From NCBI GenBank assembly GCA_963805855.1, contig CAWDVW010000002.1:384001-448000 (forward strand): a stretch of DNA of 64,000 nt, given 5' to 3'. This DNA is from Candidatus Dadabacteria bacterium. GTDB taxonomy: Bacteria; Desulfobacterota_D; UBA1144; Nemesobacterales; CSP1-2. Numbering within the stretch: position 1 is the first letter of the stretch; the number at the start of each line of letters is the position of its first letter. The position numbers were made by a program. Positions 22,401 through 28,400 of the stretch are shown here, in pieces.

Positions 22401-25400
22401 GACATAAGCGGCCTTATCTGGGGCATGCCTCTAATCATACTTCTTCTGGGCACCGGAATATATCTCACGATAATACTAAGAGGGATTCAATTTCGGGCTC
22501 TAATACCCTCATTATATCTAGCTCTTATCAAAAGGAAAGAGAAGGAATCATCAGAGGGAGATATTACACACTTCCAGGCGCTCATGACCGCCCTTTCCGC
22601 CACAGTCGGAGTTGGAAACATTGCCGGTGTTGCTACGGCTATCGCGTTAGGTGGGCCAGGCGCACTTTTCTGGATGTGGGTAACCGGTCTATTCGGAATG
22701 GCTACCAAATACTCTGAGGCCGTGTTAGCGATTAAATATAGAGAGGTAGACAAGTTCAACACTATGAGCGGCGGCCCGATGTACTATATATCTAAAGGGC
22801 TGGGAATCAAATGGCTCGGAGTAATTTTTGCAGTTTTTGCTTCAATCGCCGCCTTCGGAATTGGCAACATGGTCCAATCAAACTCAGTGGCAAAGGGACT
22901 GGAGTCAACTTTTGGGATTTCACCATGGGCTACAGGGGCTGTATTGTCTATTGCAACTGGGATGGTGATTCTCGGAGGGATTAGAAGTATAGCAAGGACT
23001 GCAAGTGCTATTGTCCCGTTCATGATAATCCTGTATATCGTTGGCGCGATTTTGACGCTGATCGCACACTATACAAACATTCCACAGGCTTTTAAATTGA
23101 TTTTCGTTCATGCATTCAGCCCCACTGCCGTAACTGGCGGATTTTTAGGAACAGCTTTGTCACAAACGGTCAGGATCGGGGTCGCAAGGGGAATATTCTC
23201 AAATGAATCCGGGCTTGGAAGCTCTCCCATAGTCGCCGCCGCGGCAAAGACCCGTAACCCCGTCGCACAGGGCCTAGTTTCTATGACACAAACCTTCATT
23301 GACACAATCGTAGTATGCACATTTACCGGGCTCGTCATTATCTCCAGCGGCGCATGGACAAGCGGAGAGACGGGAGCCGCGCTTTCAACGCTTGCTTTCG
23401 AAAAGGGTGTGCCATATAAATTAGGTGCTAAAATAGTTTCACTAAGTCTTGCATTCTTTGCTTATTCCACTCTACTTGGATGGTCTTATTACGGAGAGAA
23501 ATCTATAGAGTATCTGTTTAAAGAGCGTGCTGTGAAACCGTATAGAGTAATTTTCACGGTTGTAGTTTTAATTGGTGCAGTCGTTCAACTTGATTTAGTC
23601 TGGACTTTCGCAGATATCATGAACGGACTCATGGCATTCCCAAACCTTATCGGCCTCCTCGGGCTCTCGAAGGTTGTTGTGGAGGAGACAAAGAAATATC
23701 TGGATCTCGAGATATCAGGAAAGTAGGATCACTTCCTTTTTAATCAACAATGCATGAAGAATGTTGCCGTTGCTAACGATAGCGAAGTAACCTCTATTTT
23801 CTAGATTGCTTCGCCACGGAGCTTGCCGCTCACCCTGAGTGATGTCGAAGGGTGAACGGTTCTTTTTATTAAAACAATGCTCTTCCTCCGAAGTAGCCAT
23901 TAATAAGAAATCAAAGTGAATTATTCTTAACCATTTTTCTAAAAACCTATTTGACTTTATTTCCTAAAGTTAATAAAATGTGGAATATAGTTAACGCCTA
24001 ATCGGGGAAAGAATGTCGAAATATATCATTAAAATCGCTGAAACTGATGATGAACTAAAAGAATATTTTCGTGTTCGCAACGAGGTTTTTGTAAAGGAGC
24101 AAGGGATATTTACCGAGACAGATGTTGACGAACATGATCCGAGCGCAACTCACATAATCGCAGTCGAAGCCTCAAGCAGTAATGTAGTAGGCGTTGTCAG
24201 ATGCTACAGTAAGGATGGAAACACATGGTTTGGCGGCAGACTGGGAGCCTTACCAGATTACCGCAATGGCAGGGTTGGGTCTCGTCTTGTGCGATTTGCT
24301 GTGAGTACTGCTAAATCAAAGGGCTGCAAAAAATTCCTGGCATACATACAGCCCAACAATGTGAGATTCTTCCAGAGACTTGATTGGGAAAAAATAGGAG
24401 AGCCAATTATCTATGAAGGCATGCCACACCAATTGATGGAAGCGAATTTGGATTCGTACTAATATCACGATGCACGATGCAGGATTCAGGATGCAACTAT
24501 GAAAAAAAAGAACTTACATCGTGCATCATGCATCATGGATCATGTATGGTGAATCGTGCATCCGCAATTGTTGACGATACCGTGTTATTAAAAAAGAATG
24601 GGAATCCACTATGGATGAGCTAATAACTGCTTTACGCAGCTCCACACGTTTAGCCGAAAAGGTAAATTTAAGGAACCTCTGGGACATCATACCGGGTGTC
24701 TGCGAAGTTGACGGTAGAAATGTGATTCTTGGTGACGATGCGGCTGCTATAGAGACAAACGATGGTTATCTATTGGCGGCGGCTGAAGGCGTTTACCCCG
24801 AACTTCTGAAATCAAATCCCTACCTTGCAGGGCGCACCTCAGTCCTCACAAATGTGAGCGATATTTACGCTATGGGTGGAAGACCAATAGCGATCCTGGA
24901 TGTACTATTTTCACCCAATTTAGAAGAAGTCAATGATATAGTGCGAGGTATAAAGGATAATGCGTACCGATATCATGTACCACTTGTAGGAGGTCATTTA
25001 AATCGCCGAACAAATTTCTCTTCCCTCTCAGTCTTTATCATAGGTAGGGCTACAAGCCTACTCTCCAGTTTTAATGCCCAAGAAGGCGATGACTTGGTTT
25101 TCGTTTGCAGCCTAGATGGAAAATTCTATTCGGGATTTAATTTCTGGGATTCCTCCAGCGAATTGAGTAGTGAAGACGCTCTCAGACAATTGGAATTGTT
25201 TCCGCGACTTGCGGAAGAAGGAAAGGTTGATACCGCGAAGGACGTTAGCATGGCAGGTTTAATTGGATCAGTACTGATGCTTTTGGAGTGTTCCGGAAAA
25301 GGTGCGGAGATACAAATAGAGAGGATTCCGAAGCCTGATGAGATCCCATTGAGGGATTGGTTGATTACCTTCCCGAGTTACGGATTTATTCTATCGATAA

Positions 25401-28400
25401 GACCGCAATACACCGCAGACGTTAAGAAGATATTCGATTCCATTAATCTCACGTGCGAAGTGATCGGTAAGATTATCGGCGGCAGTAATGTCTCATTTGT
25501 AAAAAATGGCGCTGAGAAAAGACTATTCTGGGACACCGAAGTCCAGCCCTTAATTGGTATTGGAAAAGATAGATTTAATAAGGTGAAAAATGGGAAATGA
25601 ACAGAATCAGATAGAGGACATAGTTTCCAAACTAGGTGAAAAAATCAAACGAATCCGATTGGATAGGGGCCTGTCCCTTAAAGACTTGTCGGTAAAATCG
25701 GGGATCTCCGCAGCAGCCATCCACAAGATAGAGTCTAATGGAATAATCCCGACTATAACGACCATGATGAAGATCTCCGACGCCCTGGGAAAAGAAGTAA
25801 GCTATTTCATCGAAGAAAAACGGGGGAAAAAAGATGTCTTTTACGTACCTGCTCGAAAACGTGAAAGCATTTTCACATTTAAGAAGGGATTAAAGCTTCG
25901 TGGCATTTCCGCAAAGAAATACGGAGATTTCATGATGACGGCCGCCTATGCGGTGGTTGATGTAGGGGCCTCAAGCGGTAGAAAACCAATGAAACATAGA
26001 GGAGAAGAGCTCGTATATTGCCTTAAAGGAAAAATGGAACTGCGAATAGGTAATGAAACATATACCCTTGGACCCGGCGACAGCATTCACTTCAGGACTG
26101 ACATCAATCATAGCTGGAAAAATACCGCCGACACTCAAGCAGAGTTAATTTGGGTGCTAGCCGTCGAGCCTTCATGAGGCAAGATACATGATGCAAGATG
26201 CAGGATACAGGATACAAGACAGTAGAAGAAAATATAAGTTAATCGTTAATCGTGAATCGTGAATCATGGATCGTGGATCATGCATCTCTTATTAAGAACA
26301 TGGTTGCTAAAATAAAAAGTCAGAAAAAAACAGAAACTAGGACATTAACGTATCTAGGTCAGCGAATTAATGAAGCCAACACACTTGCGGTAGACAGGAT
26401 CTTATCGGTTGAACCGGTTCTTCATTGATGTTGATACCGCAGTTAATGTAATACCGGGCATGACTCCCGATACTGTACTACATGCAGGTCCTCCGATTGA
26501 ATGGGAAAGAATGTGCGATCCGATGAAGAGGGCAGTTAGAGGAGCTTTAGTGCTCGAGGGCCTTGCGGAAAATGACGAGGCCGCGGACCAACTACTAAAA
26601 AGAAAAAAGGTAAAGCTCTCGCCAAATCATCACCATGACGCAGTGGGGCCTATGACCGGAATTATCTCGTCTTCAATGCCTGTTATTGTTACAAAAGACT
26701 CAACCTTCGGCAATAAAGTCTATTCCACGTTTAATGAGGGCGCAGGCAAAGTCCTATGGTTTGGGTCATTCGGAAAAGAGACCCTTGAGCGTCTCAAGTG
26801 GATTCGGGACATTTTTGGTCCCGTAATGAAGAAGGTTATCAAAAAAGCACAAGGCATCCCAATATGGAGCATCCTGGCCCAGGGAATTCAGATGGGAGAT
26901 GAGTGCCATAATCGTCACGCGGCATCATCAAATCTTTTTCTTAAAAGAATCCTAGAACCACTCGTTTCAATCGATCTTTCAAAAAAAGTCTTGTTGCAGG
27001 TCTATAACTTTATTGCCGGAAATAGCCATTTCTTTCTGAACATGACCATGACTGCATGTAAACTCTCGATGGACGCGGCAAGGGATATAAGAGAATCAAC
27101 CGTTGTCACAGCAATGTCTAGAAACGGGACTGATTTTGGTATTCGAATAAGTGGACTTGGGAATGAATGGTTCACGGCACCTGCTCCTTATCTCAAGGAT
27201 GCCCTTTATAACCCTGGATATAACTTCAATGACGGAGCCCCAGATATAGGCGATAGCTCAATCATAGAAACAATGGGACTTGGAGGGTTCGCCATCGCAG
27301 CCGCACCTGCAATGGCATCGTTTACCGGAGGAGGCTTTCAAGAGTCCATAAGAATTACAAAGGAGATGGGTCTAATAACTCTCGTAAAGAATCAGAAGTT
27401 CGGGATCCCGGTTTTGGATTTCGAGGGAACTCCCACAGGCATTGATTTACGAAAGGTCGTCGAAATTGGCATTAGTCCAAGTATAAACAGCGCCGTAGTA
27501 CATAAAAGCTCAGGCGCCGGTCAGATAGGCGCGGGAATCGTAAAGGCCCCATATGAATGTTTTTCGAAGGCGCTAAAGGCTTTTGGAAGGAAATACAGAT
27601 GATGCACGATACAGGATGCAAGATGCAGGATAATAAAAGAAAGTATGGGTTCATCGTGAATCATGCGTCATGAATCTTGAATCATTAAGAGAAAACCATG
27701 GCTATAGTCAGCACGGTTAAGAAAAACTTCTATCAGGATTCGATGAAGCTTATGCAGATTAGCCAAAAGCTAAGCAATCTTAGCGGAATCAAAAAGGCGG
27801 CAGCAATCATGGCAACTAAAGCTAATCTAGCTATGCTGAAGGAGACGGGATTACTTAAGAAAGAAACTGATTCAGCCAGTCCTAACGATCTTATAGTAGC
27901 AATTGAAGCAGAATCTGAAAAAGAAGCAAATGAAGCTCTAAAGATGTTGGACACCCTTCTTGCCCCTCATCAAGCCGGCATTACCGCAAAATTTGAATAT
28001 AAGGATCTTGATTCAGCCCAAAATGATTTGCCTCAGTCGAATATTGCAGTCATTTCCGTTCCCGGAGAATATGCAAAGTTGGAGGTCGCGAAGGCTGTTG
28101 ACAGGGATCTCCATGTCTTTCTGTTTAGCGATAACGTATCAATCGGTGAAGAGATTGAGCTCAAGCTTAGGGCAAAAGAGAAGGGCTTACTAATGATGGG
28201 TCCTGGTTGTGGAACCGCGATCATCAATGGAGTAGGACTTGGATTTGCAAATGTCGTCAATCGGGGTCCAATAGGGGTTATCGCAGCCGCCGGGACTGGA
28301 ATGCAAGAAGTTACTAGCCTGATAAACAATTGGGGATCAGGAATTTCGCACGCAATCGGAGTCGGCGGTAGAGACCTGTCTGACAAGGTGGGGGGAATAA

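Follow-up and report, generated by a model that had tools for sequence, protein, structure and literature searches.

Our analysis of a Candidatus Dadabacteria genome (G000 below) shows arrays of a 7-nt unit, TGNATCN, which have one anatomy, which lie just past gene ends, whose five fixed letters are, as judged by comparing orthologues, under purifying selection, and which turn over among relatives and carry no transposon hallmarks. We favour the reading that these heptad elements are RNA hairpins at gene ends, forming a "zipper" that would mark and protect the 3' end of the upstream cistron or tRNA. We give this reading a probability of about 0.4; that the elements are transcribed and fold in the cell is inferred, as are all of its functional steps. 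On the whole, the observation made in an initial annotation of this DNA is confirmed as real, and its interpretation is partly supported.

Heptad elements in the window and in the genome

The window, that is the whole 64,000-nt stretch analysed, has four inverted heptad elements (A to D). Below they are listed together with the genes beside B, C and D, as given by ORF calls and Pfam.

18013-18119, no strand assigned: element A; 5' arm (NGATNCA)x5 18013-18047, loop 18048-18063, 3' arm (TGNATCN)x8 18064-18119
24013-24462, + strand: GNAT acetyltransferase gene, upstream of element B
24468-24563, no strand assigned: element B; 5' arm x4 24468-24495, loop 24496-24514, 3' arm x7 (5 perfect) 24515-24563
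24611-25600, + strand: AIR-synthase-related gene
25590-26177, + strand: HTH + cupin regulator gene, upstream of element C
26175-26287, no strand assigned: element C; 5' arm x6 26175-26216, loop 26217-26238, 3' arm x7 26239-26287
26300-27602, + strand: AllG-like (oxamate carbamoyltransferase subunit) gene, upstream of element D
27600-27684, no strand assigned: element D; 5' arm x4 27600-27627, loop 27628-27649, 3' arm x5 (3 perfect) 27650-27684
27698-29257, + strand: FdrA-like CoA-ligase-domain gene, downstream of element D

Elements B, C and D are three inverted arrays in a row within a single operon, as had been noted before, and A is a fourth element in the window. Element A has a BpsA_C-domain gene (16891-17949) before it and a carbamoyl-phosphate synthase large-chain gene (18120-21356; both by Pfam) after it, and folds at -39.9 kcal/mol (z -4.05). 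Element B starts 5 nt past the TAA stop (24460-24462) of the GNAT gene and ends 47 nt ahead of the AIRS-family gene; in a related strain (run X8) it is two 7-nt units shorter. The TGA stop of the HTH-cupin gene is inside the first, imperfect unit of C (TGAGGCA), with an ATG at 26300, 12 nt beyond the end of C, and likewise the TGA stop of the AllG-like gene is inside the first unit of D (TGATGCA), with the ATG of the FdrA-like gene 13 nt beyond its end. The AllG-like gene itself is split over two frames in the assembly (26300-26428 and 26409-27602), and the sequence of other populations is one letter shorter at 26418 or 26419. The 3-unit pattern has 18 matches in the window and 0 in 100 dinucleotide shuffles, and an Rfam 15 search at the gathering score returns two tRNAs and no match on the heptad elements.

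In the whole genome, a strict scan (at least 3 perfect units) finds 86 arrays and a tolerant scan 102, with 0 in the reversed sequence in both cases. Grouped together, the 102 arrays form 69 elements, namely 29 RF, 1 RFF, 0 FR, 20 R, 17 F, 1 FF and 1 RR, and the arms of all 30 pairs are in the order (NGATNCA)n-loop-(TGNATCN)n. This is in accordance with the 100 arrays, 67 elements and 30:0 order counted initially; the loci compared in two congeners show the same order (8:0). The remaining 39 of 69 elements lack the inverted-pair structure, so that a hairpin is impossible from the element alone. The layout can be written as CA(NGATNCA)3-10, decayed A-rich units and loop, then (TGNATCN)3-10 TG; the array ends abruptly on the gene side but decays into NGATRAA units towards the loop, a pattern to be expected if the base of the stem is its most important part. 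Over 532 units the make-up is T 517, G 474, N, A 516, T 523, C 516, N, which leaves five positions 89-98% fixed and two free.

The free letters behave unlike those of a stem selected to pair. In the 30 pairs the inner ones pair in 54 of 130 cases (60.6 ± 4.1 by chance) and the outer ones in 34 of 130, below the chance level of 49.8 ± 5.0. They bear no sense-strand signature (G.U 24 against A.C 34), and neighbouring units are alike at them in 36 of 430 cases, compared with 41 ± 6 after shuffling. The arms of a pair are often unequal by several units, yet the surplus units retain the fixed letters, and a partnerless arm at C2:458294 has 11 of 11 units perfect. Since the arm order is fixed, perfect units persist in some partnerless arms and the free letters show no pairing above chance, selection for a stable hairpin alone does not account for the repeat, as the initial annotation had argued. 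The predicted folds of the 30 pairs have a median MFE of -29.7 kcal/mol and a median z of -4.4 (24 of 30 below -3); the z figures are weaker than those first given (-5.2, and 29 of 30). In addition, three arrays contain internal multi-unit duplications, other heptad families are also present in G000, and no transposase linked to the heptad elements is found in this genome.

The elements start right after gene ends, as first described (median 6.5 nt): the median distance from the upstream gene end is 6 nt, with 34 of 61 within 10 nt and 44 of 61 within 30 nt. These distances rest on the gene ends of a crude ORF caller, and the set of 61 excludes 8 elements in divergent spacers. The RF pairs lie even closer, with a median of 4 nt and 19 of 29 within 10 nt, whereas the downstream gene start is a median 54 nt away. 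The three classical GTAG-REP families of G000 serve as a control: their distance from gene ends is 126-227 nt, and 2 of 76 come within 10 nt. A tRNA gene adjoins 12 of 69 elements, seven of them within 30 nt of the tRNA 3' end, and two elements are located between tRNA genes; 13 of 69 lie between convergent genes. The shortage in divergent spacers described before is present but modest (8/69 elements against 405/2416 spacers overall, by our own ORF calls). Similarly, the bias of single arms towards one orientation (18:6 in the initial count) has less strength, at 21:11 (p = 0.11), or 15:6 for those within 30 nt of a gene end. As a separate observation, one RNA-library contig spans the element at C7:53364 together with both flanks, its ends matched by eye, a weak hint of read-through from a single RNA run with 10 of 30 bins covered and contigs only.

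Conservation and turnover among relatives

The comparison of G000 with its congener G002 at two alignable orthologous elements gives the selective pattern of the unit. The fixed letters differ at 1 of 79 sites and the free letters at 15 of 31; the loops differ at 4 of 41 and 4-fold sites at 168 of 651 (26%). The contrast between 1/79 and 26% points to selection on each unit.

The elements are, on the other side, unstable as a whole. Unit number varies in 7-nt steps between strains and between congeners, and whole spacers are swapped for other repeat families where the flanks of the genomes compared agree to 95%. Among 15 genomes of the host's family, in which the gene order of the three-element operon is kept, the spacer after the AllG-like gene is empty and 12-31 nt long in 6 and holds a hairpin-forming repeat in 9: TGNATCN in 2, CCAAATN heptads in 1, TTNGGAA-type heptads in 1, GCCACRGA-type repeats in 4 and a GTAG REPIN in 1. 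The tRNA-Thr/tRNA-Tyr spacer has a hairpin element in all three congeners, with unrelated sequences. The replacement by other periodic hairpins in relatives, as initially proposed, is seen at both spacers, and this speaks for the retention of some hairpin there, whichever family supplies it. An array of 4 units is absent altogether from three of the 15 family genomes.

The repeat had been thought confined to the genus and a few related genera, and this does not hold: arrays are detected in 23 of 120 genomes and 12 of 32 genera of the phylum, and also in genomes whose public titles name other phyla. In viral contigs the true pattern occurs at 26 loci and the reversed control at 18, with 8 and 5 variable arrays respectively.

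Weighing the explanations

According to the hairpin reading, the element would be co-transcribed with the upstream gene or tRNA, and its RNA would fold into a stem of 3-bp (GAU/AUC) and 2-bp (CA/UG) blocks with single mismatches between them. This stem may work as RNA punctuation, either as a block to 3'->5' exonucleases or as a processing mark, and would fix and protect the 3' end of the upstream cistron or tRNA within polycistronic transcripts, without being used as a canonical terminator. The periodic mismatches hold each perfect helix to at most 6 bp, so that RNase III and the DNA instability of palindromes may be avoided, and arrays grow and shrink by whole heptads. As the stem starts within reach of a ribosome on the stop codon, it would probably also damp translation of the upstream gene, by analogy with E. 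coli, where REPs less than 16 nt from a stop have been reported to damp upstream translation. Support for this reading comes from the placement right after gene ends, the stability of the predicted folds, the recurrence of hairpins in the spacers of relatives, the selection on the fixed letters, the sharp gene-side edge, the lack of terminator features and, weakly, the contig that hints at read-through. Stem-loops are described at transcript 3' ends throughout bacteria in the cited portion of PMC13613805. Against the hairpin stand the 39 elements without an inverted pair, the fixed letters kept in unpaired arms and surplus units, and the free letters, not selected to pair and devoid of a sense-strand signature; the fixed arm order is also more than a hairpin by itself suffices to explain.

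A real possibility, if a somewhat unlikely one, is that the arrays come into being and multiply through a mutational or selfish mechanism (slippage, template switching or some unknown dispersal) and survive only where they are harmless, just past gene ends, any RNA effect being incidental. The fast turnover in 7-nt steps, the three internal duplications, the replacement of whole spacers between similar flanks, and the empty spacers and the genomes without a 4-unit array in the host's family are all consistent with this, as is the reversed control in viral contigs, whose counts, about as high as those of the true pattern, indicate that microbial DNA has a background of heptad arrays whatever their sequence. 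According to the sections of PMC4692102 drawn on here, polymerase slippage has been held responsible for the overabundance of heptameric repeats in bacteria. However, the fixed letters diverge far less than 4-fold sites, and adjacent units resemble each other no more than shuffled ones do, whereas fresh slippage products would be similar. Moreover, classical REPs are not close to stop codons, showing that the placement is not explained by tolerance alone, and the same spacers are refilled repeatedly by differing families.

We consider it unlikely that each TG.ATC. (or GAU.CA) unit is the contact for one copy of a protein coating the RNA or DNA array, with the hairpin secondary or competing, although features awkward for a hairpin, namely five letters conserved even in partnerless arms and surplus units, two letters free, unlike in adjacent units and pairing at or below chance, and the single arm order, would fit it. 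The omega repressor of inc18 plasmids reads 7-bp heptad arrays, both direct and inverted. The cited part of PMC12232666 describes a cyanobacterial protein with one RRM whose targets are folded RNAs located at stop codons or overlapping them. One candidate reader in G000 is its single glycine-rich RRM protein (C5:870286-870660). Within the phylum, 19 of 23 genomes with arrays have RRM_1, as do 19 of 97 others; by genus the counts are 10 of 12 with arrays and 6 of 20 without (p = 0.009, not corrected for kinship), while the control family Y1_Tnp shows no link to arrays (15/23 and 51/97); in f8 the sole array genome is also the sole RRM genome (1/37 each). Outside the phylum, however, the RRM does not discriminate, being present in 10 of 15 genomes with variable arrays and in 4 of 5 comparison MAGs with monotonous repeats only. 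Four array-bearing genomes of the phylum, fragmented or 80-83% complete, show no RRM, and one genus has it in 5 of 6 genomes with arrays in none. Besides, the G000 protein resembles a general glycine-rich RNA chaperone, searches of G000 for the HutP and CsrA families give no match, and the several heptad families in G000 and its relatives would each require a separate reader.

Canonical factor-independent termination is very unlikely. The elements do include stable stem-loops immediately downstream of genes, some of them between convergent genes, but an intrinsic (Rho-independent) terminator with G+C-rich stem, short loop and U-tract is not what the heptad pairs show: TTTT follows within 12 nt in 5 of 30 pairs, at least 5 T occur in the first 8 nt in 7 of 30, and loops range from 3 to 44 nt, with one pair loopless and its arms overlapping. 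Three elements lie within one operon of conserved gene order and two between tRNA genes, and a consensus terminator scan of 19 kb gives 15 sites, against 16.9 ± 4.1 in shuffles, calling none of the four window elements. Still more improbable is a REP/REPIN moved by RAYT (Y1 transposase). Multicopy, imperfect extragenic palindromes of about 70-120 nt and 10 PF01797 matches in G000 speak for it, but the nearest heptad element is at least 5210 nt from each of these matches, in agreement with the initial statement that no RAYT gene is flanked by arrays. GTAG-headed REP-type palindromes flank three of the PF01797 genes; the others have different repeats beside them or none. The GTAG/GTGG head is absent from the arrays, whose outer edge is CA followed by NGATNCA, and G055 (99% complete) has 57 array windows with no PF01797 match. 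As for a MITE (non-autonomous DDE transposon), no target duplication is seen, the mean flanking direct repeat being 2.03 nt against 2.17 ± 0.17 with shuffled partners, and no inner sequence is shared: loops are unrelated, and no two loci have 4 consecutive units in common (0 pairs, 0.22 expected).

Relation to known repeats

The anatomy of the heptad elements is not new, because heptamer repeats in convergent inverted pairs near the upstream ORF are known from Xanthomonas and Nostoc (PMC4692102, in the sections cited), and this heterogeneous repeat is the closest known system. The G-rich heptamers of Rehm et al. 2015 (PMC4692102), GGGAATC / GGGANTN in Xanthomonas and GGGGAYT in Nostoc, share with TGNATCN a 7-nt unit of five conserved and two variable positions. 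According to the same sections, arrays there are mostly of about 4 units, with 70-75 convergent inverted pairs per genome; about 90% are intergenic, 28 nt from the upstream and 160 nt from the downstream ORF, few between divergent genes; length and sequence differ among close relatives, and the repeats show no bias for a class of genes and have no assigned function (PMC4692102). Heptads with variable positions, inverted pairs in one order and proximity to the upstream ORF are all found in G000. The differences are the unit sequence, the positions of the variable letters, the phylum, and the G-tracts, which form G-quadruplexes in the published repeats (PMC4692102, same sections); TGNATCN reaches at most GG, and only where N is G (45 of 532 units, position 3). 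The G-tract is a mark of the published G-rich subtype and not of the anatomy.

Like REP/BIME/REPIN elements, the heptad elements are multicopy extragenic palindromes at gene ends and within operons, while they differ in lacking the GTAG head and a flanking RAYT, in their distance from gene ends (6 nt, against 126-227 nt for the GTAG-REPs of G000), and in their variable heptad number, owing to which the copies have no fixed common sequence. Intergenic tandem heptamers of unknown function also include the cyanobacterial STRR heptamers, which PMC4692102 mentions. For the TAACTGA direct repeats of Beggiatoaceae, cyanobacteria and Bacteroidetes, the cited part of MacGregor 2015 (PMC4679880) again describes intergenic tandem heptamers of unknown function, one unit occurring across distant lineages with no evident transfer; those, however, are direct repeats just 5' of start codons (one inverted set among 170), of uniform units without free positions. 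The Synechocystis Rbp3 (RRM) stem-loops are similar in being folded RNA with unpaired nucleotides, at or just past stop codons and upstream of true terminators, but have no common repeat or sequence family as described in that part of PMC12232666; G000 encodes a small RRM protein too, a putative binder.

What is new for the heptad elements is the pairing of free letters at or below chance, the use of classical REPs as a placement control, and the refilling of the same spacers by other families. A bolder view, which we regard as quite improbable, is that the heptads are a code for a dedicated protein, possibly the small glycine-rich RRM protein, binding one copy per TG.ATC./GAU.CA RNA unit, the array marking the 3' ends of cistrons and tRNAs in polycistronic transcripts. 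If true, the fixed arm order and enforced mismatches would keep the units readable instead of locking them into a perfect helix, there would be an explanation for the heptamer repeats of Xanthomonas, cyanobacteria and Beggiatoaceae that has long been lacking, and the system would be a bacterial counterpart to the protein-defined RNA ends of organelles.

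Inverted heptad arrays in the window

Three inverted arrays of a 7-nt unit are found at 24468-27684, within one co-directional gene cluster, and a fourth lies at 18013-18119. The unit is TGNATCN, in which five letters are fixed and positions 3 and 7 are free, and each element has the layout (NGATNCA)4-6, a loop of 16-22 nt, (TGNATCN)5-8. The 3-unit pattern has 18 matches in the window and 0 in 100 shuffles. The elements and the genes of the cluster are as follows.

18013-18119: element A, inverted heptad array
24468-24563: element B, inverted heptad array
26175-26287: element C, inverted heptad array
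27600-27684: element D, inverted heptad array
Cluster gene 1: GNAT acetyltransferase
Cluster gene 2: AIR-synthase-related protein
Cluster gene 3: HTH-cupin regulator
Cluster gene 4 (26300-27602): AllG-like protein
Cluster gene 5: FdrA-like protein
Cluster gene 6: carbamate-kinase-like protein

The GNAT gene ends in a TAA stop, and element B begins 5 nt downstream of it. For elements C and D, the preceding gene has its TGA stop within the first unit of the array. The next ATG follows 12 nt after element C and 13 nt after element D, so that these two spacers are nearly filled by the element. In a related strain from a public run, element B has two 7-nt units fewer. Metatranscriptome contigs of one run cover a small share of the stretch, falling in 10 of 30 bins and carrying neither end nor strand information.

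Several other features of this region are recorded here. The AllG-like gene consists in this assembly of two overlapping frames, 26300-26428 and 26409-27602, with a frame change near 26418; contigs from three public runs lack a letter at 26418 or 26419, which would give a continuous gene. The frame change is either real or stems from an error in the assembly. A second heptad family, CAGGAGA / CAGAAGN, forms arrays at 38708-38744 and 39280-39319, and the same unit stands in place of GATNCA units in the 5' arm of the element C ortholog of the congener G001. In the same congener, the ortholog of 24463-24610 (locus L134, 1472-1508) is a spacer of just 35 nt. A 5' arm of about 4 units stands alone there and stops 2 nt short of the AIRS-family start codon (ATG), and a ribosome-binding site cannot be recognised. 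Compared with the genome under study and with the other congener, G002, this spacer has lost its loop, 3' arm and leader. At 2421-2942 (C2:386421-386942), a Y1-transposase frame (PF01797, 2522-2803) with an in-frame TAG is flanked by GTAG-type REP palindromes with about 9 occurrences genome-wide. This arrangement resembles a classical RAYT/REP unit and has no apparent connection with the heptad arrays.

The family in the genome and its distribution

On the whole genome (3.11 Mb in 9 contigs), a strict scan for at least 3 perfect units detects 86 arrays and a tolerant scan 102, with 0 in the reversed sequence in both cases. Grouping of the arrays gives 69 elements. Writing R for an (NGATNCA)n arm and F for a (TGNATCN)n arm, these are 29 RF, 1 RFF, 20 R, 17 F, 1 FF and 1 RR, and the order FR occurs 0 times. 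Over 532 units the fixed letters are counted as T517, G474, A516, T523 and C516, while position 3 is C277, T134, A76 and G45 and position 7 is A171, C148, G135 and T78; the letter make-up of the units is equal in both arms. Adjacent units have alike free letters in 36 of 430 cases against 41 ± 6 after shuffling, showing no excess. Four consecutive units are shared by 0 pairs of arrays (0.22 expected) and three by 14 (10.5 ± 3.5 expected), and multi-unit internal duplications are present in 3 arrays. The outer edge of the arrays is sharp, with CA directly before it, and the loop side decays via NGATRAA units. Two minor heptad families, CAGRAGA and GNATTTG/CCAAATN, are also found in this genome.

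Among 120 genomes of the phylum, 23 have the 4-unit pattern, representing 12 of 32 genera, and the reversed control has it in 0 of 120. By family the pattern is present in 11 of 14 genomes in f1, 9 of 33 in f2, 1 of 1 in f4, 1 of 37 in f8 and 0 of 19 in f9. A 5-unit scan of a species-representative collection yields at least 123 loci in many phyla, and among the matches listed many are monotonous simple repeats. Variable arrays, some of them RF pairs, are found among the matches listed under record titles of Thermodesulfovibrionales/Nitrospirae, WOR-3, Thermoanaerobaculales, Deltaproteobacteria/Thermodesulfobacteriota, Calditrichia, Poribacteria and one Halobacteriota archaeon; for the loci of other taxa among these matches, the order is RF in 9 and FR in 3. 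Four variable-array genomes from other phyla have 10-14 windows each against 0 in the control, where the titles or the binning of the MAGs may be wrong. In viral contigs the true pattern has 26 loci (8 variable) and the reversed control 18 (5 variable), and with counts this similar, arrays of heptads with arbitrary sequence form a general background. That TGNATCN recurs across distant phyla need not point to a shared factor.

Placement at gene ends and turnover among congeners

Based on gene ends from our own ORF caller and ARAGORN, the elements fall into co-directional spacers in 27 (>>) and 21 (<<) cases, into convergent spacers in 13 and into divergent spacers in 8, the genome totals being 811, 814, 386 and 405. 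For the 61 elements outside divergent spacers, the gap between the upstream gene end and the element has a median of 6 nt, with at most 10 nt in 34 of 61 and at most 30 nt in 44 of 61, while the downstream start follows at a median of 54 nt. The stop codon is TGA in 19 of the 37 genes with an element within 30 nt downstream, against 33.5% genome-wide (p = 0.035); this excess fits TGA as possible first three letters of the unit. The same genome offers a control in its GTAG-headed classical REPs, some of which flank Y1-transposase genes. Three families of these REPs lie at a median of 126-227 nt from the upstream gene end, with at most 10 nt in 2 of 76, which shows that the close approach to stop codons is specific to the heptad elements and not general to compact spacers. 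A tRNA gene adjoins 12 of the 69 elements (for example C7:318350-318852 and C2:86676-86754). With only 48 tRNA/tmRNA genes among about 2700 features, tRNA genes are over-represented as neighbours of elements, including sites between adjacent tRNA genes of one cluster.

The gene order of the cluster is conserved in 15 of 15 genomes of the family, and the spacer 3' of the AllG-like gene has quite different contents. It is 12-31 nt long and element-free in 6 of these genomes, holds a TGNATCN hairpin in the genome under study and in G002, a CCAAATN heptad hairpin in G001, TTNGGAA-type heptads in G014, GCCACRGA-type hairpins in four genomes, and a GTAG REPIN in G010. At tRNA spacers the three congeners were compared, with flanks 90-97% alike. 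The tRNA-Thr/tRNA-Tyr spacer has a TGNATCN hairpin in two of the three, with unrelated loops, and another element in the third, and the spacer 3' of a second tRNA-Thr has TGNATCN in the genome under study and CCAAATN in G002. An element at C7:324845 is orthologous in all three congeners with an equal unit number. In two alignable orthologous elements of the genome under study and G002, 1 of 79 fixed letters and 4 of 41 loop letters differ, against 15 of 31 free letters, a count possibly inflated by unit gaps in one of the two alignments; at 4-fold sites in flanking genes 168 of 651 differ (25.8%).

Several known identities were considered and rejected. For a RAYT-REP system, no PF01797 gene lies within 5.2 kb of any element, the GTAG head is absent, and PF01797 is without a match in another genome of the phylum (G055), which carries 57 array windows. 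A MITE is rejected by the lack of target duplication and of common inner sequence, and spread by copy and paste by the same lack of target duplication and by unit runs common to loci only at chance level; the scrambling of orthologous arrays between congeners would allow an old transposition. Terminal repeats of a larger element are rejected since widely spaced R...F arms enclose ordinary genes, such as an ABC-transporter gene at C5:859549-861321. Integron attC sites were likewise considered and are less likely, as the operon gene order is kept in 15 genomes with or without elements. A canonical terminator is rejected on the grounds that TTTT follows within 12 nt downstream in only 5 of the 30 pairs, and that a consensus terminator scan of 19 kb is not above chance and calls none of the elements. 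At gathering scores Rfam matches two tRNAs and no other family. An R arm and an F arm enclose a gene at C6:84922-85473 that belongs to the 23S-rRNA-intervening-sequence protein family (PF05635, 128 aa). The two arms abut the stop codons of two convergent genes, one arm per gene, as though the PF05635 gene had been inserted in the loop of a single hairpin; of the 3 PF05635 matches in the genome, this is the only one situated between arms.

The 30 inverted pairs are predicted to fold at a median of -29.7 kcal/mol (range -20 to -45), with a median z of -4.4 and z below -3 in 24 of 30. The predicted stem is a zipper of alternating 3-bp and 2-bp blocks. Inner free letters are paired in 54 of 130 cases against 60.6 ± 4.1 by chance and outer ones in 34 of 130 against 49.8 ± 5.0, so perfect helices stay short; an excess of G.U over A.C in the sense orientation is not seen (24 against 34). 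An RNA-level hairpin at gene ends fits best, in view of the element-specific placement, the refilling of the same spacers by unrelated hairpin families, the sharp base of the stem, and the presence of some hairpin between the two tRNA genes in all three congeners. Such a hairpin may shield the 3' end of the cistron or tRNA upstream of it, or determine where that end lies. As its foot is at most a few nucleotides from the stop codon, it might in addition hinder ribosomes during termination, an effect reported in E. coli for REPs close to stop codons (PMC12306157). The enforced mismatches would protect the stem from RNase III and make the palindrome tolerable in the DNA; this step, like all the functional ones, is inferred.

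The hairpin leaves unexplained the fixed arm order, the 39 elements other than inverted pairs (some of them perfect), the surplus units where arms are unequal, and the arrival of the family at new sites. For these four points, a protein reading individual heptads and a non-adaptive origin of the arrays are both kept alive as rivals. With regard to a protein, the RRM_1 domain is present in 19 of the 23 array-bearing genomes of the phylum and in 19 of the 97 others, counts which ignore kinship, against 15 of 23 and 51 of 97 for the control family Y1_Tnp, and a cyanobacterial RRM protein is described as binding stop-codon-overlapping stem-loops (PMC12232666). However, the link is gone outside the phylum, where 10 of 15 variable-array genomes have the domain and so do 4 of 5 comparison MAGs. 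The single RRM protein of the genome under study (C5:870286-870660) is glycine-rich with C-terminal RGG repeats. HutP and CsrA, which read periodic RNA motifs, have no match in this genome, which is 93.8% complete.

Relation to known heptamer repeats and significance

Intergenic heptamer repeats in cyanobacteria have been known for decades. To our knowledge, neither a function nor a means of spread is established for these or for the heptamer repeats of Xanthomonas. The latter have been known since 2015 (PMC4692102). The anatomy of the elements matches the heterogeneous heptamer repeats of Xanthomonas and Nostoc, which likewise have five conserved and two variable positions, with arrays of about 4 units, 70-75 inverted pairs in convergent order per genome, the upstream ORF at 28 nt and the downstream ORF at 160 nt; they are rare in divergent spacers, differ between close relatives and are not known to have a function (PMC4692102). 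In contrast, TGNATCN is another unit, incapable of forming G-quadruplexes, in another host phylum. The likeness of its GNATC core to the Xanthomonas unit is probably due to chance, because the variable positions are out of register. In the full-text literature, searched by topic rather than by the letters of the unit, no description of TGNATCN was found.

The family offers a clean comparative system, with a sharply defined unit, filled and empty orthologous spacers in one genome family, unit-by-unit turnover across three congeners, and classical REPs as a control of placement within the genome. If the arrays are neutral, they would show that unrelated repeat families can refill a single gene-end spacer. 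Should the hairpins fix the 3' ends of RNAs, or reduce translation at stop codons, they would represent a widespread, unannotated layer of operon regulation in uncultured bacteria.
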